DNA from: an uncultured bacterium
Lineage (GTDB): Bacteria > Oederibacteriota > PGYV01 > CAWJRG01
Assembly: GCA_963845185.1 (NCBI GenBank)
Contig: CAWJRG010000010.1
Coordinates: 224,001-288,000, forward strand
Reading direction: 5' to 3'
DNA length: 64,000 bases
In this document: in pieces, positions 1 to 11,852 of the stretch
How the letters are laid out: each line of letters opens with the position of its first letter
How positions within the stretch are numbered: position 1 is the stretch's first letter
Notes under the pieces: model-generated
Told to the model about the DNA's origin: nothing
Database searches by the model: none
The model's input: only the letters and a program-made list of their open reading frames with translations
Made by a program: the position numbers and the translations under genes

Positions 1-2372
1 CCCGTAAACCCTGTGGGCGTCGGTTGAAATATAAATTGTGTCCATTCCGCGCTCGGGACGCCGATGTTGGCTGTCAGGGAATATATTCCGTTGCCGACAG
101 GGGACGTGTAATACGGGTTTAAATACTGCCACTGGTCGCCAGAACTGCTTGACCAGTCGTCATAAACAGTAAAAGCCTGCGTCACTGCGCCACTGTTGTT
201 GCATATTACAATGTTAAAAGTAAGCTGGTCTGTGTTAACGATATTTGTTGTTTTGCTGGCTGTTTTTGATATTGTAAAATTCGGCGTAGGTGTAGGCGTC
301 ACTGTGACTGTCGGCGACGCGCATACCACGTTGAAAACTGTCTGGTTTGAGAATTGCGCTGCCGGGCCTCCTGATTGTGTTCCCGAGATGCCTGCTACAT
401 TTGTAAAGCTCTGGTTGCACGCCGAAGTGGATGCCCACCACGTATATGAGCCGCTCTGGTCGCTTATATTTCCAAGGTTCCATGTCAGCATGCTGCCGTT
501 CTGGCTTCCAGCCGGATTTGACCCCTGATATGTCAATCCTGCGGGTATCGTGTCAAAAAGCGCAGTATTTGCCGATACCCTGGTATTGTATGTCATAAAA
601 TTATTATATGAGTCCTGCGTTGTGCCGTCCTGATCGTTTCCCTGCTCGCCTACGCCGGGCCTCCAGTCTGAGTTTGTTCCGCCGTGGTCAGGGCATTCCC
701 AGTTCGGGTCTGTGTTTGATGTAGTGTCTGTCCATGTAAGCTGGTATGCTATCGGTTCAGGCTGGCCCACCTGCCACACTTTTGCCTGGAAAGTAAAGCC
801 GTTTCCGCTTATCAATATTTTTACCCTGTACCATGTGTTGCCTGTTAGGGCAAGTGATGCTGGGTCAACATAAGCGGGCCATGAGCATGTCCCTCCTCCG
901 CATTTCTGTATGCCAACATACCCGCCTGAAGGAGCAGTATCTATTGACAGAAGCAATCCGTATTCGTAACCGGCGTTTCCGGTTAGTCCGTTGCTGCGGA
1001 TTATTATAAATGCGTCCGAGCCTGTATAATTGCCCGGATTTATCATTACATCGGATTCTATTATTCCAGAATTGCACATCTGCACATTCGCTGGCGTCGG
1101 GTCGTCCAAAAGTAAAGCAGGATATTTCATGGGTGCCGAAACACTGCCTGTTATTATCCTGTCGCCTGTGTTGCACGCGTCGCTTATTGTCCATATGCCG
1201 GTCTGACCGCTTCCGTCCATATCAGGAAGGAATTTCCATCCCGGCGGCGGTGAACTGCTGTATGCCCCGTTTGCTGCATCGTCTAACATCCTTATTGCCT
1301 TTAATACATTTCCGTTTATCTGGTAATTCAAATAATATGTTATCGTAACTGTGGAACTTGGCAGTTTTAAAAATGAATTAATGCTTTGTTCTTTGTCCAG
1401 CGACAGTCCAACCGTGCCCACTGTAAGGTTCGCCGTAGACGAGCTGTTGGCTGATCCGTTTGTGCCTGTTGCCGTGTTTGATATTACCGTGCCTGTCGCT
1501 ATTGCGCATGTCATTTGCAGCAAAATCCAGACCGTGCCTGACTTGGTATAAGTCGTGCTCGGCATTGTCCATGACACTGTGCCTGAAGTGGAGCCGAGCG
1601 CAGGAGCGCTCACGCTGCCGCCCGATGGCGCAGGATTCGGGCCGTAGTCAATGAGAGCAAGGCACCCTCCGCCCGGTATCGGGTCGGTTATTGTCGCGCT
1701 TCCGTTGCCATATGTGTAGTCAACCGAGTAAAGCACTTTGTCTCCGACAAGCGCGAGCGTGCCCTGCACGTTCTTGTGCACGCTTACCGACTGCGCCGGC
1801 GTCGGTATCGGCCAGTTTAATGTTTGATAATCGCACACAGGCATAGCGCTGCTCCAACTCATAATGTTATTTTCAAAACCAGCAATCATGTTTAAATTTG
1901 TTATGCTGCTTCCGCATGATGCGCTTCCCATGTCGGCCGCATTCGGCATTGTAAGCGTATACTGTGCTGTTCGCATCATCCCGCTGGTTGAGCCGCCGCA
2001 TTCCGCGCAATTAGGGAGAAAGGGGCTTGGTATGGGTATATTGTAGCCTATATTTCCCGCCGGATTCGGATTTGTCGAATGGACATCAATGCCAAGATTG
2101 CTTACCAGGAATACCTGGCCCGCTGTGTTTATTGCTTGCGGCGTGCTGCTTGTGCTTATTGCGACATCCAGGGCTCCGGCGTTATACTGGTCTATGCAAT
2201 ATGAAATATTAAGCTCGAATTGCTGCCCCCATCCTGGATTCGTAGGATTCATTGTTGCCGAGATTATGCCGTCAGCTTCTAATATGGAAGGCATAAACAG
2301 GAATGATAAAATGATAAGGAATAAACTTCCGGTTTTTACCGCTTCTATTTTTTTATCTGTCATCGTTTTCAT
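1..2372 (-). CDS. Large secreted protein with DUF11-like domains and Thr/Pro linker; paralog of the gene starting at 9015; runs off the left edge
   Basis: Not in the ORF track because it is truncated. ATG at 2372 after AGGAG; reads MKTMTDKKIEAVKTGSLFLIILSFLFMPSILEA-DGIISATMNPTNPGWGQQF..., collinear with the 9015 protein (PANPGWGQ, CxxCGGS, GQPEPxAYQL, TQDSYNNF, FSNQT). Confidence 0.85.
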   Translation of the reverse strand, partial: MKTMTDKKIEAVKTGSLFLIILSFLFMPSILEADGIISATMNPTNPGWGQQFELNISYCIDQYNAGALDVAISTSSTPQAINTAGQVFLVSNLGIDVHSTNPNPAGNIGYNIPIPSPFLPNCAECGGSTSGMMRTAQYTLTMPNAADMGSASCGSSITNLNMIAGFENNIMSWSSAMPVCDYQTLNWPIPTPAQSVSVHKNVQGTLALVGDKVLYSVDYTYGNGSATITDPIPGGGCLALIDYGPNPAPSGGSVSAPALGSTSGTVSWTMPSTTYTKSGTVWILLQMTCAIATGTVISNTATGTNGSANSSSTANLTVGTVGLSLDKEQSINSFLKLPSSTVTITYYLNYQINGNVLKAIRMLDDAANGAYSSSPPPGWKFLPDMDGSGQTGIWTISDACNTGDRIITGSVSAPMKYPALLLDDPTPANVQMCNSGIIESDVMINPGNYTGSDAFIIIRSNGLTGNAGYEYGLLLSIDTAPSGGYVGIQKCGGGTCSWPAYVDPASLALTGNTWYRVKILISGNGFTFQAKVWQVGQPEPIAYQLTWTDTTSNTDPNWECPDHGGTNSDWRPGVGEQGNDQDGTTQDSYNNFMTYNTRVSANTALFDTIPAGLTYQGSNPAGSQNGSMLTWNLGNISDQSGSYTWWASTSACNQSFTNVAGISGTQSGGPAAQFSNQTVFNVVCASPTVTVTPTPTPNFTISKTASKTTNIVNTDQLTFNIVICNNSGAVTQAFTVYDDWSSSSGDQWQYLNPYYTSPVGNGIYSLTANIGVPSAEWTQFIFQPTPTGFT

Positions 2373-2422: not shown

Positions 2423-2451
2423 TTAGACAATTTATTTCTGTTTTTGTTCCA
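2423..2451 (-). promoter_or_regulatory. Putative ECF sigma promoter TGGAAC-N17-GTCTAA
   Basis: Minus strand TGGAACAAAAACAGAAATAAATTGTCTAA, ~50 nt upstream of the ATG; same motif at three other genes of the locus. Confidence 0.8.
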
Positions 2452-2688: not shown

Positions 2689-5600
2689 TTATCTTATAAC
2701 CGCCACTTTTTCTTTTCTTTCGCATTTGCCGAGTTTCATGTAAAGCAAATATATGCCCGAACTTACTGTCTGGCCATTGTCATTGGTCCCATCCCACGAA
2801 ATATCCCAATCCCCGTTTTCCCGGTCTTCTGCAATTGTTTTTACCAAAATGCCGTTCCTGTTATAAACCTTTATAACCACATCCATCTGTGTATAAAGCG
2901 AATAATGTATTGCCAGGTATTTGCCCAGCCCCGGGTAAATAATATTCTGGAAAAGTGTTAAAGTCTGGCACGGCGACTGGTTCGCCGGCGGCGCGCCGAC
3001 ACTCACAGGCGTCGCTGTTATTGTAACTGTTGCAGTCAAAGTTGCAGTAGTGACAGGCGGCGTGGCCATTGTCTGCGTAATAGTGGCTGTCTCCAATTGC
3101 GTCAATTCAGGCGTAAAGGTGGTTGTTGCCGATTGCGTTATTGCCATGGTTGCCGTATCTACCGGCGTATTTGTCGATGTAGCTGTTGTTGTCGCGCATG
3201 TGAACAGGTTGCTCGACGCTGACGCGCTGGTCATCACTGCTCCGTTAACAGCGTCTGTTCCGCTTGCAGTCCCGCTGAATGTCATATTGTTGCATATTAC
3301 AATATTATATACCCAGGTAAATGAGGCTCCTGAACCCGCTGCAATCGGTGTGCTCGCAGGGCTTACCCCGGAAACAATAACAGCAGCTCCCCCGCCGGAT
3401 TGTGATAAACTTGACGGCACCACGTTATTTGCTGTATTTGTTCCTGTATTTATCACCTGCATCACAACTGTTATATCCTCTTCGGACGAGGCACTCGCCG
3501 GCAGTATGGTAATACTGCTTATTGTAAGATTTATCGCTATTGTTGGTGTTGTTGTCAATGTCATTGTAGGCGACTGCGTCATTGGCATGGTTATCGTGTT
3601 TGTAGGAAACGGCGTGCATGTGGATGTGCCTGTGCCAAATACCGGAGTCAATGTAATGGTCACCGTGCATGTAGGCGTAACAGTAAAAGTCGATGTACTT
3701 GTAATATTCGGCGTGGCTGTCCATGACATTGCCGGCGTGTATGTCGGCGTTACTGTAAATGTGCATATGCAGGGCGGCGGGGTAAATGTCGGGGTTACTG
3801 TGCGCGTCGATATTGGCGTCGGCGTCCATCCCAGGCTCGGATAAAACCCCACGTCGTCTATTGATAAATCAACACCATGCCCGAAATCATATGTCTGCCA
3901 GTTTATCTGCAGCAGGTTTTGCAATACCAGCGTTAAGCTTACGCTTGTCCCCCATCCTGTTTCCTGCGTCAGGTCCGAAAACGGTATCTGCATTTGCGAC
4001 CATACAGTCGGCGGGAGAAATGTATATTTATAGTCGTTGGATCCTGTGCTTGTAACCGATGCCGGCGCAATAAACCTGATGCTGTACTGATGAATCCCGT
4101 CTCCTTTTACTGCCATTATAAATCCGGTAAAACCGCTGACATCCCTTGTTGTAATAGTGCTCGCGTCAACATTTGTCCCAAGGCCGACGTATGGATCAGT
4201 TTCTGCCGCCGGGCAATTAGGCGCGTTGTTGCAGCTGGCCGGACAATATGTTATATAAACATATCCGGTTACCCTGGCGCAATACGCCGTGCCGTACGGG
4301 CTTCCTGCCCAGCCGGGTGATGACATTACAAACGTTGCGCCTTGCTTTGGCCATACCGTGGTTGTATCATTTGCGCAAGTTGTTGTGCCGTAATACGAAT
4401 ACCACATGCCTCCCCAGTTATTTATCGCATTCCCATCCTCAAATGAATCAAGCAATGCCACTGGAACCAAATGCGTTGCTGTCGGCGTAAATGTCGGCGT
4501 CGCGCACATGCAGGTATCCCTTAAATCCCAAAGATTCCCTGTCATTAAAAGCAGAGACAATATCTGCCACGAGTCGGTGTAAAATGAGTTCGGCGCAAAA
4601 CTTCCTGTTTCTGTGCAGTAATTATTCAGGACTGACTGGTAACTTCCTGTCGCATTCCTCATGAAAGAACACCCTATGGGCCCTGTGAAACAGGCGTTGT
4701 GATTGGTTCCAATTATATTTCCGCTTGATACTGTATATCCGTCCTCTATTGCCGTGGCTGATACCCCGCTGAAAAATCCTGATATGTCCGCCTGTTCAGA
4801 CCCGGTGTCTACTCCATTCCACGAATAATATAACTCGAATTTCCATGGCACCCTGCATGAATTATATAAATAATCCAACCCGTTGCATGGGCCGTTTCCT
4901 CCGCTGCTGCACGGGTCTCCGTTCTCCACTGCGCCTCCCGACAAACACGAATCTCCTATCAGCCCGTTTGCCGGGTTCCTCGTTGCTCCCGCCATCCATG
5001 CAATCATTGAAGCCAACACGCTGTTCCATTTAGCCGAGTTTGTCGTGTCTACGTTTGCCCATATATAATAATATGCAGGGTCCCAGTATGACGGGTAATA
5101 CCATGTATTCCATTGGTCCCCCGGGTTTACGGCAGAGTTACCTGAATCTACGTCGTGTGCCAAAACATACCCTTCTTCCGTAATTGCCTGGGTTAATATG
5201 CTTGCATCGCTGTTGCCCGGCGACGGCCCAAATTGCCACGCTGCCATTAACACAGAAAATGCTATATCTTCGTCACCATCTGTTTCTGAATCTGCCGGGC
5301 TTGCTTTGTTGCTTCCGTCTGAATTCAGGTTCCATACCATGAGATTGTTTGAATCAAGATGAAATTGCATATAACTCCATAAATTATTAAATGTCGTCGC
5401 GTCTCCAAAATATACCGCCATCAGCATCCCGTATCCTATTCCCTCTGAAGTTGTGTCATTGCTCTGGTCCGGCCTCATCACCCGCTCGTAACCGTTGGCC
5501 CCGGAAGTCGAAATGTAATGTACCTTCCACGTGTTGTACAGGTTTAACAGGTTTGTATTGTTGTAACTTGTCGAGTATATCCCGTATGGATATGCATGGT

Positions 5601-5739
5601 TTATCGGAAATGGGAAATTGGCGTTTGTGTTGGTGATTATATTTGCGCCAAATGCCTGGCAGGACAGGATAATTATAAAAAACAGGAATATTCCTGCTTT
5701 TTTTATTGCTCTGGCCTCTTTATAGGTTTTTATATTCAT
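2689..5739 (-). CDS. Secreted glycoside hydrolase family 8 with CBM11/CIA30-like module, Thr/Pro linkers, Ig-like domain and FlgD-Ig-like CTD
   Basis: Signal peptide; GH8 motifs TTSEGIGYGML, TDGDEDIA, PSYWDPAYY; LLDSFEDG...WYSY...VKGDG binding module; CTD IKVYNRNG...WDGTNDNGQTVSSGIY...KVAVIR. Confidence 0.9.
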   Translation of the reverse strand: MNIKTYKEARAIKKAGIFLFFIIILSCQAFGANIITNTNANFPFPINHAYPYGIYSTSYNNTNLLNLYNTWKVHYISTSGANGYERVMRPDQSNDTTSEGIGYGMLMAVYFGDATTFNNLWSYMQFHLDSNNLMVWNLNSDGSNKASPADSETDGDEDIAFSVLMAAWQFGPSPGNSDASILTQAITEEGYVLAHDVDSGNSAVNPGDQWNTWYYPSYWDPAYYYIWANVDTTNSAKWNSVLASMIAWMAGATRNPANGLIGDSCLSGGAVENGDPCSSGGNGPCNGLDYLYNSCRVPWKFELYYSWNGVDTGSEQADISGFFSGVSATAIEDGYTVSSGNIIGTNHNACFTGPIGCSFMRNATGSYQSVLNNYCTETGSFAPNSFYTDSWQILSLLLMTGNLWDLRDTCMCATPTFTPTATHLVPVALLDSFEDGNAINNWGGMWYSYYGTTTCANDTTTVWPKQGATFVMSSPGWAGSPYGTAYCARVTGYVYITYCPASCNNAPNCPAAETDPYVGLGTNVDASTITTRDVSGFTGFIMAVKGDGIHQYSIRFIAPASVTSTGSNDYKYTFLPPTVWSQMQIPFSDLTQETGWGTSVSLTLVLQNLLQINWQTYDFGHGVDLSIDDVGFYPSLGWTPTPISTRTVTPTFTPPPCICTFTVTPTYTPAMSWTATPNITSTSTFTVTPTCTVTITLTPVFGTGTSTCTPFPTNTITMPMTQSPTMTLTTTPTIAINLTISSITILPASASSEEDITVVMQVINTGTNTANNVVPSSLSQSGGGAAVIVSGVSPASTPIAAGSGASFTWVYNIVICNNMTFSGTASGTDAVNGAVMTSASASSNLFTCATTTATSTNTPVDTATMAITQSATTTFTPELTQLETATITQTMATPPVTTATLTATVTITATPVSVGAPPANQSPCQTLTLFQNIIYPGLGKYLAIHYSLYTQMDVVIKVYNRNGILVKTIAEDRENGDWDISWDGTNDNGQTVSSGIYLLYMKLGKCERKEKVAVIR

Positions 5740-5786: not shown

Positions 5787-5815
5787 TTAGACAATTTTAA
5801 ATTATTTTTGTTCCA
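5787..5815 (-). promoter_or_regulatory. Putative ECF sigma promoter TGGAAC-N17-GTCTAA
   Basis: Minus strand TGGAACAAAAATAATTTAAAATTGTCTAA upstream of the GH8 gene. Confidence 0.8.
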
Positions 5816-5869: not shown

Positions 5870-8800
5870 TTATCTTATAACCGCCACTTTTTCCGTTCTT
5901 TCGCACTGGCCGAGTTTCATGTAAAGCAAATATATGCCCGAACTTACTGTCTGGCCGCTGTCATTGGTACCGTCCCAGGCAATATTTATATCCCCGTTTT
6001 CCTGGTCGTCCGCGGCTGTTTTTACCAGGGTGCCGTTCCTGTTGTAAACCTTAATAACCACGGCCATCTGCTTATAAAGCGAGTAATGAATGGACATGTA
6101 TTTGCCTTCTCCCGGATAAATAATATTCTGTAGCAATGCTATTGACTGGCACGGCATTTGTTCGTTCGGCGGCGTAGGTTCAACCACAAGCGTCGGCGTA
6201 ATTGTGGGCGTTACTGTTGCCGTAAAAATTACAGGGGTACTTGTCAGCGTGGCCATTGTCTGCGTAATTGTTGCCGTCGGTGGCTGCGTCAATACTGATG
6301 TAAAAGTGTTTGTCGGTGTGCATATTGTAAAGGACGCGCTGGACATTGTCCCTGCGCTGTCCATGGCAGTGTTTGTAATATTGTCTGTGTCTGATATTAC
6401 TATGCCTGTCCAGGTCACAGAGCCCTTGTTTCCCGGCGCAAGCGCGGTATAAGTCCAGTTTATGACATTGCCTGTATTATTTCCGCCGCCGCTTATTTCC
6501 GACACATTCATTTGCGCCGGTATGGAATCCCATACTGTATAATTATTTATTGTAACCGCGCCAACATTAATAAAACTTATGCTGTAAGTCACCATATCGT
6601 TCAAAGCCGCGCAAGCAGCGCTTGCTGTTTTTGTCATTGATGTGGCTGCATTACCTGATATGGCCTGTGTAATTGTGACCGTCGGCGTAACTGTCATGGT
6701 TGCCGTATCCATGAAAGTCGCTGTCCATATCATGGTCGGTGACAGCGTCGGCGTGAATGTCAATGTTTCGGTTGATGTTATCCATATTATGGTATTCGTA
6801 TATGTCGGAGTAACAGTAGCAGTTGATGCACTTGTAACCACAGGCGTCGCTGTTGTCGTCACTTGTGGAGTCGATGTTATGGTCATGGTAAATGTCGGTG
6901 TCGCAGTGAACGAAGGTGTGGCAGTACTCGTGAATGTCGGCGAAATGCATAATACATTGAATGCTGTCTGGTTTGAAAATGCCGCGACCGGGTCCCGGCG
7001 CCCAATCCGGCAATACCGGCGACATTTGTAAAGCTCTGGCCGCACGCCGATGTCGTTGCCCACCAGGTATATGACCCGCTCTGGTCTGTTATGCTGCCCG
7101 GTGTCCAGTTTACCATGCCACCTGACAATGTTCCTGCCGGGTTTGAACCCTGATACGTCAGCCCTGTTGGTACCGTATCATATACTGTTGTGTTTGCCGG
7201 TGTCCTTGGTATTAATACAAAGAAATTATTATATGAATCCTGCGTGCTGCCGTCCTGGTCGTTTCCCTGCTCGACTACACCCGGCCTCCAGTCTGTATAT
7301 GTAGCGCCTGCGCCGCAGTTAAAATCAGTGGTTGCCGCGCCTGTGTCTGTCCAAGCGAGCTGGTACGCTGTCGGCTCAGGCTGGCCAACTGCCCACACCT
7401 TTGACTGGAACACATAATCATTGCCGTTTTGTGTCATCCATGTCTTTGTCCTGTACCATGTATTTGCGGTTAATGTCAGCCCTGTCGGATTTGCCGCTGC
7501 CGGCCAATTGCATGAACCCGAGCCTGTGCCCTGGCATTTCTGATAAGCTATATAACCGTTTGCCGGAGCCGTGTCCAATGATAATATCAGGCTGTATTCC
7601 CGTAAATTTGTATCTGTATAACCATTGCTCCGTAAAATTATCAGGGCATCAGCTCCCGGGTAATCGCCGGGATTAATCATGGCGTCTGCTTCAACTATGC
7701 CCGTGCATACCTGAACATTGGCAGGAGCCATGTCGTCCAAAAGCAGCCCCGGATACATCGCATTTCCTGTAACACTTCCTGTTATAATTCTATCGCCTGT
7801 TCCGCATGTATCTGATATAGTCCACGTGCCGTTATATGTTCCCTGAGGCAGGAATTTCCATCCCAGCGGCGGCGAGCTTGAATATGACCCTGTTGCAGTA
7901 TCGTCAAACATCCTTACTGCCTCGAGCCGGTCGCCGTCTATCTGGTAGTCCAAATAATATGTTATTGTCACCAAATCGCCTGGCAGTTTCATAAATGTAT
8001 TAATGCTCTGTGTTTTCTGTAATGCAAGCGAAGAACTGCCAATTGTAAGTGACGCCGTAGATGAGGCTACTGCCGCACCGTTCGTACCCGTGGCTGTGTT
8101 TGCTATTACCGTGCCTGTCGCTATCGAGCACGTCATCTGCAACAGCATCCATACTGTTCCGCTTGTGTTGTAGGTTGAGCTCGGCATTGTCCATTGTAAT
8201 GTGCCTGATGTTGAGCCTGTTGCAGGTGCTGATACGCTGCCTCCTAAAGGCGCAGGGTTTGGGCCGTAATCAACAAGCGCCAGGCATCCTCCGCCCGGCA
8301 TTGGTTCGCTTATTATGGCAGTGCCGTTGCCATATGTATAATCAACTGCGTAAAGCACCAGGTCTCCAACCTGCGCCAGCGTGCCTTCAACCCTATTATT
8401 AACGCTCACCGAGTATGCCCCCGGCGTAGGCAATGGCCATGACACTACGGTCATTTCACAGCCGGTTAAAGCAGGCCAGCCTCCCGATGAACCTTCGAGG
8501 TCATACTCTGCCGTGCCTACAAGTAAATAAAGTGTGTTTACGCTGCACGCTGATGAGTCAAGGTCGCTTTGATTTGGCATTGTAAGGTTATATTGCAGTG
8601 TGCGTAATCCGCCGTTTGAACCCCCGCAATCAGTGCATGAGTCCTCATTATATGCGACATTTGACACTGCCTCATACCCAAGTTCCCCTCCCTGCCATAA
8701 ATTCTGATATGTGCTTTTAACATTTACTCCGCCCACGCCGACAAGAAAAATCTGCTTTCCCGAACCCGGCGTTGATGGCGTGTTCTGAGTGCTGATTGCC

Positions 8801-9015
8801 ACAGCTATGTATGCACCCCCGCTGTCCTCATCGCATATCTGCATTGTCAGGATAAAATCCTGCCCCCATCCGGGATTTGCAGGGGACATTGATATGGACT
8901 CGATTTTGGGCCCTGCTGCATATATTGCTGTATATAATATGGAAATAAACGCTGATAATATTAGAATTATTTTTATTGCAGTTGTTTTATCTAGTTTTCC
9001 TGCGGCCTTTCTCAT
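5870..9015 (-). CDS. Large secreted DUF11-type protein with Thr/Pro linkers and FlgD-Ig-like CTD; one gene split by a 1-nt frameshift near 6995
   Basis: ORFs 6883..9015 and 5870..7063 join when one G is added to the GGG run at 6994-6996, giving GIAGLGAGDPVAAFSNQT, which aligns ungapped with the paralog GISGTQSGGPAAQFSNQT. Confidence 0.85.
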
Positions 9016-9061: not shown

Positions 9062-9090
9062 TTGGACAATTTATATGTTTTTTTGTTCCA
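9062..9090 (-). promoter_or_regulatory. Putative ECF sigma promoter TGGAAC-N17-GTCCAA
   Basis: Minus strand TGGAACAAAAAAACATATAAATTGTCCAA upstream of the 9015 start. Confidence 0.8.
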
Positions 9091-9120: not shown

Positions 9121-10026
9121 CTAAAAATTCCAGTCCAGGCTTAGCCTGTGCGTGTCGCCCAGGTTGCCAAAAGGCTGGTAAGCGTATGACAGCATTGCCT
9201 TTTTTTCTATCAGGAACCCGAGGCCTACCGATAAATTATTGTCGCTGTGCCGCAGCCCGAACCCCATCCTCAAATATACGATGTGATAAAAACCGCCTTC
9301 AACGCCCATGTCGAGAGTGGGCAGGTCATTGCTCACCATCAGCCTGTTTACGTCCAGGGCGGCGGTCAAATCAAAAAAATCAGTAAAGGTGTTTTTTAAC
9401 CCGAACCCGGCTTTTAAGTTCAATGGCAGGGTGTCCGGCACGCTGATATACGCAGTCTGGTACCCTATATTCTGCAGCGCCAGCCCGATAAAAGTGTCGG
9501 GATTGCTGTTCAGTTTCATCAGCATTCCCGCGTCCGCGGCAATGCCTTTTTTTGAATATTTATAAAGCTGGCTGAAAAAATATTTTAAATTCGCGCCTGC
9601 GGAAATGCCAGGCGCCAGTTCATAACCGTATGATGCAGTCAGCAGCATGTCGTAATTGTTCACTTTCCCCACTACGTTTCCGAAGCTGTCAATCTGGTCA
9701 AAATTATAAGTGCTGTCAAATAAAAGGCTTGCCCCAAACGTGCCGAGTTTCACGCCGCACGGCATTGCATAGCTTAAATATTCATAATCGGTGTCGACAA
9801 AAGAGGCAAAATGGGTAAGTGATATGGTTGATTTTGATACGTATGCCAGGCCAGCGGGGTTAAAAAGCGGGCCGTTTGAATCGTCGGCAATAGCGCAGAA
9901 AGCGTCGCTCATGGCAGCCGTACGCGCCGGAGGTTCTATCCTTAAAAAATCAGGGCCTACTGTCCCTGTCGCTAATACCAGGCACGGCAGGATAATAAGC
10001 GCTGTAACCGCGGAAAACTTTTTCAT
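9121..10026 (-). CDS. PorV/PorQ-family outer membrane beta-barrel
   Basis: Signal peptide; FLRIEPPARTAAMSDAF, FNPAGLA, LPLNLKAG and terminal YAYQPFGNLGDTHRLSLDWNF match the PorV-like pattern. Confidence 0.8.
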   Translation of the reverse strand: MKKFSAVTALIILPCLVLATGTVGPDFLRIEPPARTAAMSDAFCAIADDSNGPLFNPAGLAYVSKSTISLTHFASFVDTDYEYLSYAMPCGVKLGTFGASLLFDSTYNFDQIDSFGNVVGKVNNYDMLLTASYGYELAPGISAGANLKYFFSQLYKYSKKGIAADAGMLMKLNSNPDTFIGLALQNIGYQTAYISVPDTLPLNLKAGFGLKNTFTDFFDLTAALDVNRLMVSNDLPTLDMGVEGGFYHIVYLRMGFGLRHSDNNLSVGLGFLIEKKAMLSYAYQPFGNLGDTHRLSLDWNF

Positions 10027-10129
10027 TCAGTATAGCTCCCCATGGGATTCAACGTTGTACGGGCTTGGAACCGGTTATTGCAAAATAAATTTTTTGTATC
10101 TGCCCTTGATAAGGATTATTCTACCAGAT

Positions 10130-11119
10130 TTATTTTACAATGCAAACCTTTCTTTTCGTCTCCACAAGCCCGGTCTTTATGTATATCACGTAAATCCCGG
10201 CGCTCACCTGCGCGCCAGTATCGTCGTAGCCATTCCATGAATCCTCATATATCCCGGTTTCCCTGAACCCGGATTCTATCGTTTTTATCGGTTCGCCCCT
10301 CCTGTCATATACTTTAATCAGGATTTCCGAAGGCTGCGCCACTTTGTACTGCACGGTTACGCTTTCGCCTTTTTCAGGGTTAATGACATTGTTTTTTATC
10401 TGAAGGTCTTCTTTCATCTCTTCCTCTGTCGGCGTCTTTTGTACTTCCGCCGCGCTTACGCTGTTTCCGCTTTCAACTGCAGCCCCGGACCGCTGTTGCG
10501 CCGCGCCCGTGTTAACCTGCTTTCCTGCCAGCGCCAGCGATATATGCGGCACAGCCTGGCCGCCCTCATTTTGCGTGACCGCGGCCTCTTTTGCCTGCGT
10601 TGTCTTGTTCCCCTCTGCTTCCTGCTTTTTTGCTTGTGCCTGTTTATTTTCAGCAACCATCTGCTTTTCCTTGGCTGCGGCCTCCTGTTTCTTTGGCTGA
10701 GCAGCTGCCTGCAAAACCGGCATTTTTTTCTGTGCTGCTAAAGTCTGGGGCTTATTCGCCTGCGCAACCTTTTGCCCCTGCGTATTTGTGCTGAACCTGA
10801 CGCCAAAAACCAGTATTAATATCACGGCGAGCACTGCCGCGGCTGCCTGAGGCACCAGCGGCCTCTGTAATATGGATTTAACAGCCCTCTGCCATGTCAC
10901 GGGCGGCTGCTCTTTCAGCCTCAGCCACACAGCGTCGTTAAAATCCAAAGGGATGTTTACCTTTTCTTTTTCACGGAAAGCGGCTTTCATTTTGTTTATT
11001 ACGCTGAATTCCCTTGCGCACGCAGGGCATTCCCGCATGTGCTCCAGGGCATTTTCATTTAATGCTTTGCCTTCCGTGTATTCCTCTAATATCTTTTTAA
11101 ATTCCCTGCATTTCATCAC
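10130..11119 (-). CDS. Zinc-finger (zf-HC2) anti-sigma factor with TM helix, charged linker and C-terminal FlgD-Ig-like domain
   Basis: HMRECPAC (HxxxCxxC); hydrophobic AAAVLAVILILVFGV; C-terminus IKVYDRRG...WNGYDDTGAQVSAGIY...KVCIVK; overlaps the sigma stop codon. Confidence 0.85.
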   Translation of the reverse strand: MMKCREFKKILEEYTEGKALNENALEHMRECPACAREFSVINKMKAAFREKEKVNIPLDFNDAVWLRLKEQPPVTWQRAVKSILQRPLVPQAAAAVLAVILILVFGVRFSTNTQGQKVAQANKPQTLAAQKKMPVLQAAAQPKKQEAAAKEKQMVAENKQAQAKKQEAEGNKTTQAKEAAVTQNEGGQAVPHISLALAGKQVNTGAAQQRSGAAVESGNSVSAAEVQKTPTEEEMKEDLQIKNNVINPEKGESVTVQYKVAQPSEILIKVYDRRGEPIKTIESGFRETGIYEDSWNGYDDTGAQVSAGIYVIYIKTGLVETKRKVCIVK

Positions 11120-11697
11120 TTATCACCAAGTTTTTCCATGAGCCTTTTCCTCAGTTTTTCCCTCGCGCGCCACAGCTTTGATTTTACGCTGCCAACCGGC
11201 ATTTTCAATATCTTTGCCATCTCCTCGTATTCCATTCCTTCAATGTCCCGCAGTATCACCACTGATTTTTCCTCAGGCTCCAGGTTGTCAACTTCAGCCA
11301 TTATCACGGCACGTGTTTCTTTCGTTTCCATTTCCTCGTCCGCGAGCTGGTTTGTGTCTTTTACGTCAACCTGCCTTTCATTGTCTTCCTCGTCCGCTGT
11401 TAAAGAACCGGTTTCAAAAAACCTTCTCCTTTTCAGGAAGGTCCTCCTGTTCAGGCAAATGTTAACCGTTATCCTGTAAAGCCACGTTGAAACTTTTGAC
11501 TTAAACTCAAAGCTTTTTAATTCGGCATACGCCTTGCAGAAAACCTCCTGCGCGATATCCACCGCCTCGTCCGTGTTCCTCATGTACCTGTAGCAGAGTT
11601 CTGTAATGCGCTGCCTGTAAACTGTTATTATCCTTTCAAATATCTTTTTATCGCCTTTTTGCGCTTTTTTAATCTCGCTAAAATTCACTTCTTCCAT
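11116..11697 (-). CDS. ECF sigma-70 family RNA polymerase sigma factor
   Basis: DIAQEVF, STWLYRITVN, ILRDIEGMEYEEMAKILKMPVGSVKSKLWRAR. Confidence 0.95.
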   Translation of the reverse strand: MEEVNFSEIKKAQKGDKKIFERIITVYRQRITELCYRYMRNTDEAVDIAQEVFCKAYAELKSFEFKSKVSTWLYRITVNICLNRRTFLKRRRFFETGSLTADEEDNERQVDVKDTNQLADEEMETKETRAVIMAEVDNLEPEEKSVVILRDIEGMEYEEMAKILKMPVGSVKSKLWRAREKLRKRLMEKLGDK

Positions 11698-11716
11698 TTA
11701 TTCCTCTTCTGCCTCT

Positions 11717-11745
11717 TTTGACAATTTTTAGCCGGAAAAGTTCCA
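11717..11745 (-). promoter_or_regulatory. Putative autoregulatory ECF promoter TGGAAC-N17-GTCAAA
   Basis: Minus strand TGGAACTTTTCCGGCTAAAAATTGTCAAA, ~20 nt upstream of the sigma ATG. Confidence 0.8.
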
Positions 11746-11852
11746 ATTATTTTCATATTTTTTGGTTTAACTCCGGCTTTGGCCCCAATTATATAATAAA
11801 ATCGGCATTTTGTAACAGTTTTTTTGCGATGCCGGAAATACCGTATTTGCCT

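Follow-up and report, generated by a model that had tools for sequence, protein, structure and literature searches.

We examined a 64-kb stretch of DNA (hereafter the window; G000:C10:224001-288000) from an uncultured bacterium whose genome, G000, spans 3.5 Mb in 11 contigs and is 99.4% complete. The window holds a series of genes, all on the minus strand, that runs from an extracytoplasmic function (ECF) sigma factor (regions 2 and 4 only) through an anti-sigma factor and a PorV/PorQ-family outer-membrane barrel to three genes for cargo, that is, exported proteins ending in a C-terminal sorting domain (CTD) (Table 1). An earlier note on this DNA had claimed that the anti-sigma factor carries the same C-terminal domain as the secreted proteins it appears to regulate, and had proposed that this couples their transcription to secretion; it also placed a PorV-family gene directly after the anti-sigma gene, where we find it. 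Our best reading of the locus is a four-part envelope signalling cassette, made up of the ECF sigma factor, a single-pass anti-sigma factor of the zinc-associated (ZAS) type, a dedicated PorV/PorQ-family barrel and CTD-tagged cargo.

Table 1. Genes, protein regions and promoter motifs of the cassette, in window coordinates (aa, amino acids; nt, nucleotides; TM, transmembrane; AF2, AlphaFold2; pLDDT, predicted local distance difference test).
Feature	Position	Strand	Support
ECF sigma factor, 193 aa	11116..11697	-	Sigma70_r2 1.6e-12, Sigma70_r4_2 2.1e-13, Sigma70_ECF 4.4e-5 (Pfam); TIGR02937 83.4 bits vs cut-off 42.9
Anti-sigma factor, 329 aa	10130-11119	-	4-nt overlap with sigma gene (11116-11119)
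Anti-sigma N-terminal helical ZAS-type domain, aa 1-85, predicted cytoplasmic	10865..11119	-	H27, C31, C34 invariant; AF2 helices 4-49
Anti-sigma single TM helix, aa 89-107	10799..10855	-	Kyte-Doolittle best 19-mer, mean 2.51; AF2 helix 90-108
Anti-sigma disordered linker, A/Q/K/E-rich, aa 108-238	10406..10798	-	pLDDT <50 over 113-235
Anti-sigma C-terminal beta-sandwich, cargo sorting-domain type, aa 239-329, terminal KVCIVK	10133..10405	-	FlgD_ig 37 bits
PorV/PorQ-family outer-membrane barrel, 14 strands, 301 aa	9121..10026	-	NF033709 156.8 bits vs cut-off 90
Cargo gene 1, large exported protein: DUF11 repeat, PT-rich linkers, CTD; two overlapping frames 6883-9015 + 5870-7063	5870..9015	-	
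Cargo gene 2, glycoside hydrolase family 8 (GH8), 1016 aa, CTD	2689..5739	-	Glyco_hydro_8 2.1e-38, FlgD_ig 1.1e-9
Cargo gene 3, cargo 1 paralogue, CTD, continues beyond window; 1234 aa in contig	3..2372	-	
ECF-type promoter motif GGAAC-N16-TGTC, sigma gene	11720..11744	-	
ECF-type promoter motif, cargo gene 1	9065..9089	-	
ECF-type promoter motif, GH8 cargo gene	5790..5814	-	
ECF-type promoter motif, cargo gene 3	2426..2450	-	

The anti-sigma factor joins a ZAS-type cytoplasmic domain to a cargo-type CTD by way of one TM helix and a long linker. Its HxxxCxxC motif (H27/C31/C34) is invariant in an alignment of 22 homologues, as are five positions of the CTD, and K324 is conserved in at least 90% of them. 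In all 22 the CTD terminates the protein, and the C-terminal pattern K-x-x-V-I/V-K is kept. AF2, run with this 22-row alignment, modelled the N-terminal helical domain with a pLDDT of about 95 and the CTD as a seven-stranded beta-sandwich (strands over 239-327, pLDDT 96-98). Mean pairwise identity is 36.8% in the CTD, the most conserved region, 26.8% in the N-terminal domain and 15.3% in the linker, which measures 94-184 aa from TM helix to CTD (median 136) among 55 family representatives. When the 22 members were scanned against family models at E<=0.1, FlgD_ig matched all 22, the NCBIfam anti-sigma model NF052375 and the RsrA-type model 18 each, TIGR04183 16 (best 1e-8) and zf-HC2 11. In the window protein, FlgD_ig covers residues 245-314 (E 3.5e-9, 37 bits against a cut-off of 27), NF052375 reaches 24.7 bits against a cut-off of 100, and Pfam zf-HC2 gives no match at E<=0.1. 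Two further ORFs (open reading frames) of about 325 aa with a CTD (C10:745191-746159 and C9:85418-86392) were considered as additional anti-sigma factors and rejected, as they have neither the HxxxCxxC motif nor a sigma neighbour.

ZAS anti-sigma factors with one TM helix have the N-terminus in the cytoplasm and the C-terminal part outside it. Given this topology and the single TM helix, we infer that the CTD lies outside the cytoplasm; a cytoplasmic CTD had been named in the earlier note as a finding that would speak against the circuit. The protein has no cleavable signal peptide. Its cytoplasmic domain and internal TM anchor set it apart from a Sec-exported passenger that is released into the periplasm. 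The shape of the CTD fits the features of type A CTDs from type IX secretion systems (T9SS), being a beta-sandwich of about 80-90 aa at the extreme C-terminus with a conserved lysine near its end. Foldseek against the PDB placed PorZ (5m11) first for the anti-sigma CTD, followed by FlgD (3osv, 7eha) and PorU (6za2), with C5a peptidase and further Ig-like domains interspersed in the list at similar E-values. A near-invariant lysine close to the C-terminus is also described for type A CTDs (PMC10994853), and K324 matches it.

Judged by sequence, the likeness between the C-termini of the anti-sigma factor and of the cargo is far beyond chance. The C-terminal 85-105 aa of the anti-sigma factor align with the cargo C-termini from end to end, with no large gaps, which bears out the whole-length alignment claimed earlier. 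BLASTP matched ORF 5870-7063 at 33% identity (E 8e-18) and the GH8 protein at 35% identity (E 5e-19). In a three-way alignment, 30 of 87 columns were invariant. FlgD_ig exceeds its cut-off in the anti-sigma and cargo CTDs alike, and the CHU_C and TIGR04183 matches are sub-threshold. Only one of the 'two complete secreted neighbours' of the earlier note proved to be so, namely the GH8 protein; the other, ORF 5870-7063 (397 aa), is the 3' part of a gene frameshifted from ORF 6883-9015. The intact 1234-aa paralogue matches this gene in frame -2 and then in frame -1 (tblastn), and the frameshift is either real, in which case cargo gene 1 is a pseudogene, or an assembly error.

We ranked the CTDs of G000 by BLASTP against the anti-sigma CTD, comparing it with 118 others and leaving out domains that lie more than 12 aa from the protein end or cover fewer than 55 profile positions. 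A PQQ-propeller protein came first (72.8 bits) and the operon's own cargo took ranks 2-4 (67.4, 65.5 and 61.2 bits), with rank 6 close behind at 59.7 bits and everything from rank 7 onward at 47 bits or less. Because the three cargo CTDs are close paralogues, their ranks count as roughly one event. The ranking was repeated in four other genomes, each with its own anti-sigma CTD. Cognate cargo took ranks 1 and 3 among 20 non-self hits in G027, rank 3 among 12 in G004, ranks 4, 5 and 7 among 18 in G029, and ranks 7 and 8 among 21 in G009. The top eight hits in G029 all came from such operons, as anti-sigma paralogues or as cargo, and at the ninth the score dropped to 39 bits. A FastTree phylogeny of 164 CTDs (23 from anti-sigma factors, 23 from cargo of the loci and 118 from G000), in which supports are modest for so short a domain and sampling is from the loci and G000, placed all 23 anti-sigma CTDs and their cognate cargo in one group of 53 leaves (support 0.84). 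Anti-sigma CTDs from the order are united in one clade (0.91), with a cargo clade next to it; in genomes farther away, the anti-sigma CTD joins the cargo of its own operon (L056, 0.85). Rankings and tree place the anti-sigma CTD and the operon cargo in one CTD subfamily; a grouping of the anti-sigma CTD apart from cargo CTDs, raised earlier as a refutation, was not what we found.

The barrel, although well above the cut-off of the general family model, is under those of PorV proper (NF033710, 69.1 vs 250 bits) and PorQ (NF033711, 88.8 vs 220 bits). Its sole sequence relative in the PDB is Flavobacterium johnsoniae PorV (6h3i_F, E 1.6e-11), and its AF2 model has a pLDDT of 81. We modelled the barrel (residues 21-301, 12-row alignment) in complex with the anti-sigma CTD (residues 236-329, 22 rows), as the earlier note had suggested for a PorV-like partner. 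Three runs of the complex gave a score of 0.93, compared with 0.00 for the best control out of three. Among solved complexes 116 of 157 attain this mark, as do 2 of 215 mismatched pairs, counts that are rough here, where our own alignments were used. Contacts agreed between runs to at least 94%, and the pLDDT of the partner was at least 89. On the barrel, the contact residues are 21-30, 75-79, 106-124, 154-159, 192-199, 233, 259-263 and 286-289; apart from the N-terminal 21-30, they fall on all seven loops opposite the termini. In the usual topology of outer-membrane proteins, the barrel face opposite the termini is extracellular. The model thus predicts that the anti-sigma CTD docks on the outer loops of the barrel. 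PorV is reported to hold type A CTDs at that same loop face, within the SprA translocon (PMC10994853).

The cassette also appears to share a promoter. From the aligned upstream regions of related sigma genes, 11 of 12 of which have GGAAC, a gap of 16-17 nt and TGTC or TGAC at the same place, we derived the pattern GGAAC-N16-18-TG(T/A)C. On both strands of the 64-kb window, GGAAC-N16-18-TGTC occurs exactly four times against 0.60 expected, a count reached by one of 100 shuffles. All four occurrences are intergenic and on the operon strand; one stands ahead of the sigma gene, and every cargo gene has one as well. The distance from motif start to start codon is 47 nt for the sigma gene and 74, 75 and 78 nt for the cargo genes. 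The barrel gene has no ECF-type motif of its own. All 10 orthologous loci (L045-L054) have one motif upstream of sigma and a second one between barrel and cargo; the paralogous locus L055 has a motif at neither position. The looser pattern gave six extra matches inside ORFs of related loci, which we take as chance. The sigma factor therefore probably transcribes the cargo genes, and its own promoter is a probable target of autoregulation. The claim that the anti-sigma factor appears to regulate the secreted proteins gains support from this ECF-type promoter, which is common to the sigma gene and each cargo gene.

Across G000, GGAAC-N16-TGTC was found 42 times compared with about 20 in shuffles. 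For 23 of these sites an ORF starts 30-160 nt downstream, and 10 of the ORFs in question have a CTD at their end. This core motif may be common to several sigma factors. A narrower subclass, GGAACAAA, has four genomic sites: three are the cargo promoters of the window, and the fourth lies ahead of the operon that encodes the PQQ-propeller protein, the one ranked first above for the likeness of its CTD to that of the anti-sigma factor. Because GGAACAAA promoters mark both the window cargo and this operon, the predicted regulon and the CTD subfamily coincide. The operon (L099:1416-4013, that is, G000:C10:720415-723012, +) contains a 149-aa ORF of no known family, which overlaps by 4 nt the start of the gene for a 694-aa PQQ/BamB-like beta-propeller protein; the CTD of the latter is the closest in the genome to that of the anti-sigma factor, and the pair is preceded by a promoter of the GGAACAAA...TTGTC subclass. 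This arrangement suggests that the PQQ-propeller pair is a remote member of the same regulon.

Other promoter signals were less consistent or touch the sensor genes in another way. A strict sigma-E-like pattern, GGAACTT-N15-17-TCAAA, had nine genomic matches, but it was conserved in only 1-2 of 19 related loci and was rejected. A sigma-70-like promoter match (GTTACA, 17 nt, TATAAT; 10/12) lies at 11788-11816 (-), upstream of the ECF-type motif of the sigma gene, and TATAAT-like boxes also occur upstream in several related loci. Such a promoter could provide basal expression of the sensor genes. No terminator-like sites were found on the minus strand in the intergenic gaps of the cassette, in a crude scan whose power is weak (20 sites found against 15.4 expected in shuffles).

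The gene order is conserved in relatives. With the window anti-sigma factor as query, full-length matches were found in most of 40 relatives, and in 19 fetched loci a sigma gene is followed by an anti-sigma factor with HxxxCxxC motif, TM helix and CTD. A PorV-like barrel and a CTD cargo protein of 1189-1828 aa come next in the 10 orthologous loci, with an exception in L050, where a 650-aa CTD cargo gene comes first and a second barrel and a 1490-aa cargo gene follow. The series sigma, anti-sigma with CTD, PorV-like barrel and CTD cargo is therefore conserved, which answers the concern that the synteny might not extend to relatives. A profile scan of 99 genomes of the phylum detected the fusion at full length in all 24 that belong to the order (one interrupted by a contig end). 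Outside the order, 17 more genomes had it and three showed it with the N-terminus partly covered; these represent six other families. The largest family of the phylum (31 genomes) and several others gave no match at the scan threshold.

A second profile scan of contigs, started from the barrel, gave 30 loci, the close ones mostly on the same contigs as before and so not an independent sample. Eleven have the order sigma, anti-sigma with CTD, barrel, and two have cargo between anti-sigma factor and barrel; one has no upstream DNA, and one has an unflagged 323-aa ORF after the sigma gene. The 15 most distant barrel loci (at most 37% identity) are plain cargo-barrel pairs or lone barrels. Among 1.84 billion cluster representatives, the anti-sigma profile matched 283 proteins at E<=1e-30. 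The best 150 of these include 64 shorter than 400 aa, and 55 of the 64 have the HxxxCxxC motif, a TM helix and a C-terminal CTD. Eight of the rest lack only the motif (seven of them match the profile just from about position 40-55), and one lacks only the C-terminal CTD. Ten representatives carry the source names 'hypothetical protein', 'anti-sigma factor RsiW' or 'FlgD Ig-like domain', or none. A word-indexed protein search returned two relatives besides self for the whole anti-sigma factor and one for residues 1-110. In the ESM Atlas nothing reached 0.9; the best matches, at 0.85, were Bacteroidota clusters with CHU_C on about half of their members, which we treat as a lead only.

The cassette sits in a genome with a large repertoire of barrels and CTDs. 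G000 encodes 38-40 PorV/PorQ-family proteins, 29 of them over the NF033709 cut-off, and about 120 ORFs that end in a FlgD_ig-type CTD. A same-strand CTD gene lies within 400 bp of 21 of the 38 barrel genes, and in 19 cases it is directly upstream. In the cassette studied here, the anti-sigma gene holds this 'cargo' position in front of the barrel. The cassette also suggests that such PorV-like paralogues, numerous in these polymer-degrading bacteria, are cargo-specific shuttles or anchors. Seventeen barrel ORFs are at least 450 aa long, and several have internal FlgD_ig-like repeats after the barrel. A SprA-like ORF of 2145 aa (C9:181574-188011) shows four collinear TIGR04189 stretches of 69, 56, 43 and 29 bits, against a cut-off of 200; Pfam does not recognise it. 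The genome also encodes an M50 site-2 protease.

Further sigma/anti-sigma pairs lie next to cargo elsewhere in G000. A second locus (G000:C5:181226-182158, -) has a PorV-like gene, a LacI-family regulator, another PorV-like gene, a sigma factor, an anti-sigma factor and two giant CTD cargo genes, the latter with GGAACTTTTTTGG...GTTGTC promoters of their own. The CTD of its anti-sigma factor is frameshifted, with the remainder readable in another frame, and is intact in the relatives L057 and L061. At G000:C10:693396-694276 and C9:871649-872663, two more ECF sigma genes are paired with short anti-sigma factors (135-146 aa) that have the HxxxCxxC motif and no CTD. Both pairs are just upstream of CTD cargo, and one is also beside a PorV-like barrel carrying Ig repeats. 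Sigma control of cargo-barrel modules would thus also occur without a tethered CTD.

We consider it likely that the CTD couples the activity of the sigma factor to the barrel or cargo route in some way. On balance, we also favour a cassette with CTD- and barrel-coupled sigma control as the best explanation of the locus as a whole. The sigma factor, anti-sigma factor and barrel, apparently one transcription unit, would be the sensor, and the outputs would be the cargo genes, every one of them preceded by a further copy of the promoter. In such a circuit, the anti-sigma factor would sequester the sigma factor in the cytoplasm, and a disordered tether of about 130 residues would bring its cargo-type sorting domain to the outer membrane. 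There, the tethered CTD would take the CTD-binding site of the barrel and compete with cargo for one slot. The anti-sigma factor and the cargo are expected to use the same site on the same barrel, because they share a CTD subfamily and because the anti-sigma gene occupies the usual gene position of cargo. Once a free barrel or a T9SS-like export route engaged the tethered CTD, the anti-sigma factor would be exposed to regulated proteolysis, with a site-1 cut followed by the M50 site-2 protease. The released sigma factor would then activate the cargo promoters, and new cargo would fill the barrels, outcompete the anti-sigma factor and shut the system down. This version, with competition and proteolysis, is the mechanism that we favour, yet we hold it to be somewhat less likely than not; topology, binding, crossing of the outer membrane and proteolysis are all steps that we infer. 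A stronger form, in which the anti-sigma factor is a true T9SS-like substrate whose CTD and tether cross the outer membrane and park on the barrel loops, where cargo of the same CTD subfamily competes with it, so that slot occupancy sets sigma activity, seems to us rather doubtful. If it were true, one polypeptide would link the cell surface to RNA polymerase, and a secretion signal would have been re-used as a sensor.

Several points weigh against coupling of the sigma factor to the barrel through the CTD. The sign of the regulation is a guess. Under T9SS type A models, the window CTD is below the cut-offs (TIGR04183 18.0 vs 23, PF18962 13.7 vs 27). The genome search for secretion components that the earlier note had called for recovered the PorV/PorQ family and, weakly, SprA. 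GldL, GldM and GldN were not found in G000, which is weak evidence of absence since the named control genomes were equally silent; GldK was matched through its generic FGE-like part only, and the catalytic domain of PorU was not detected, the PorU model matching CTDs only. Because of these results, we regard the export route as T9SS-like and not canonical. We know of no T9SS in which an inner-membrane-anchored protein passes its CTD and linker across the outer membrane. Such a crossing would be required here of an anti-sigma factor still held in the inner membrane, as the model puts the binding site on the outward-facing side of the barrel. Since solved PorV-CTD complexes exist, and the substrate-bound PorV entries in the PDB share the 6h3i_F sequence, the complex score may reflect likeness to them. 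Moreover, the model covers one of 38 barrels and is uninformative on specificity among paralogues. The ranking in G009 is the weakest case, with cognate cargo well down the list. Finally, the frameshifts in cargo gene 1 and in the CTD of the second anti-sigma paralogue of the genome could reflect decay or assembly error. The regulatory circuit of the earlier note nevertheless stands in part: the outcomes that could refute it and that lend themselves to computation were all tested, and none refuted it.

The strongest competing account, though an unlikely one, is a static trans-envelope sensor of the kind known as Dma, which would respond to surface events such as a substrate polymer, outer-membrane damage or vesiculation, with no cargo competition and no read-out of export capacity. 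The domain order, from anti-sigma domain through TM helix and long disordered linker to an outer-membrane module, is as described for Dma1 (PMC10927553). The barrel gene lies within the apparent sigma/anti-sigma transcription unit and has no ECF promoter of its own, as would be expected of a sensor part. The confident complex model and the maintained linker length (94-184 aa) also speak for such a sensor. It leaves unexplained, however, why the anti-sigma factor and the cargo under its control have the same CTD subfamily, and why a cargo-type tag is used instead of a Dma-style barrel fused to the anti-sigma factor.

We find it quite improbable that the tethered CTD acts in the periplasm as a jam sensor, reporting unexported cargo through CTD-CTD contacts or through a common periplasmic receptor or chaperone for CTDs. 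The DegS/RseA system, which senses unassembled porins, provides a model for such a device. The CTD subfamily common to anti-sigma factor and cargo would suit it, and so would the periplasm as the default location for a single-pass anti-sigma factor, with no crossing of the outer membrane required. The predicted regulon, however, is the cargo itself: a blockage would raise cargo synthesis further, a response that makes little sense without an inverted output. Nor does a jam sensor account for the conserved adjacency to one barrel orthologue or for the predicted barrel interface, and a periplasmic partner would not need a long conserved tether.

A generic Ig-like ectodomain, a FlgD_ig fold gained by shuffling from a neighbour that binds an unrelated ligand or shields against proteases without any link to export, is very unlikely: the top Pfam match is indeed FlgD_ig and not a T9SS model, Foldseek hits on FlgD, C5a peptidase and further Ig-like domains have comparable E-values, and duplication from the adjacent cargo alone would yield the subfamily likeness, but the fusion is old and conserved with barrel and cargo over an order and several families, the CTD is its most conserved part and has kept its extreme C-terminal position and K-x-x-V-I/V-K end, and in distant genomes it still groups with the cargo of its own operon.

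Full-text searches of papers outside subscription journals yielded no account of an anti-sigma factor that bears a sorting domain of the T9SS or FlgD_ig type. The main text and one supplement of the ECF reclassification paper contain no FlgD, PF13860, Por_Secre_tail, PorV or UPF0164 (PMC7826278). What is new here is the sensor module and its outer-membrane partner, whereas ECF/anti-sigma signalling from the envelope is known as such. For type IX-like systems, little is understood of how the synthesis of surface and secreted proteins is matched to the capacity for their export and anchoring. PorA-PorXY-SigP is the one case studied, and its link from the surface to the inner membrane is still missing. 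In a coupled cassette such as the one we favour, this link would be direct, as the inhibitor of the sigma factor bears the sorting tag of the cargo on a tether long enough to span the periplasm, and is encoded with the barrel expected to hold the tag and with cargo genes under the predicted promoter of that sigma factor. Such a compact four-gene system would also extend the idea of envelope-spanning anti-sigma factors beyond Bacteroidota.

Several known systems resemble the cassette in part. FlgM is a soluble anti-sigma factor that the flagellar type III apparatus exports in one piece, so that export competence releases the sigma factor FliA. The logic of the earlier note, with an anti-sigma factor as export substrate and export competence freeing the sigma factor, is that of FlgM-FliA; the protein described here is unrelated in sequence, membrane-anchored, and would need cleavage. 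In FecI-FecR-FecA and in the ECF/anti-sigma/SusC-like trios of Bacteroidota, the ectodomain of the anti-sigma factor is believed to touch the barrel, and the genes switched on are functionally tied to it. The gene order of sigma factor, anti-sigma factor and outer-membrane barrel is the same here. In contrast to FecIRA, family scans found no FecR domain in our anti-sigma factor and no TonB-dependent receptor match in either it or the barrel, which is of the PorV/PorQ family and is predicted to be contacted at its outer loops through a secretion-signal domain.

Cargo genes linked to a dedicated barrel, a CTD on the extracellular loops, as predicted here, and a conserved lysine near the C-terminus are likewise features of T9SS shuttle barrels (PMC12618676, PMC10994853). 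Type B CTDs are reported to have cognate PorP/SprF-like shuttle barrels in F. johnsoniae (Paillat et al. 2025, PMC12618676), and type A CTDs to be bound by PorV (Lauber et al. 2024, PMC10994853). Unlike those shuttles, the barrels here are PorV/PorQ-family paralogues (38 in the genome) that go with FlgD_ig-type CTDs, occur outside Bacteroidota, and include one whose neighbouring CTD is on a regulator. The Dma family, as described in 2024, consists of anti-sigma factors that bridge both membranes by a disordered linker, with proteolytic release proposed (PMC10927553). Dma proteins likewise have an ECF partner and run from an anti-sigma domain in the cytoplasm through a single inner-membrane helix and a long, disordered periplasmic linker to an outer-membrane module, but their C-terminus is an 8-stranded beta-barrel (OMP_b-brl_2) inserted in the outer membrane (PMC10927553). 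The C-terminus of our anti-sigma factor matches no barrel family; it forms a soluble beta-sandwich, and its predicted docking partner is a 14-stranded PorV-like barrel with a gene of its own. Dma was reported as restricted to Bacteroidota (PMC10927553), whereas the cassette described here is from a FCPU426/Goldbacteria-like phylum.

A further parallel is the PorA-PorV-PorXY-SigP circuit of the Porphyromonas gingivalis T9SS, in which a CTD protein that binds PorV feeds an ECF sigma factor (Yukitake et al. 2020, PMC7712824). In both cases, a PorV-binding CTD protein would inform, from the surface or secretion system, an ECF sigma factor that controls T9SS-related genes. PorA, however, is described as a free exported, cargo-like protein whose signal passes through the two-component pair PorY/PorX to SigP (PMC7712824). 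In our cassette, CTD and anti-sigma factor are one polypeptide, the operon has a barrel paralogue dedicated to it, and the predicted regulon is the cargo and not the machinery.

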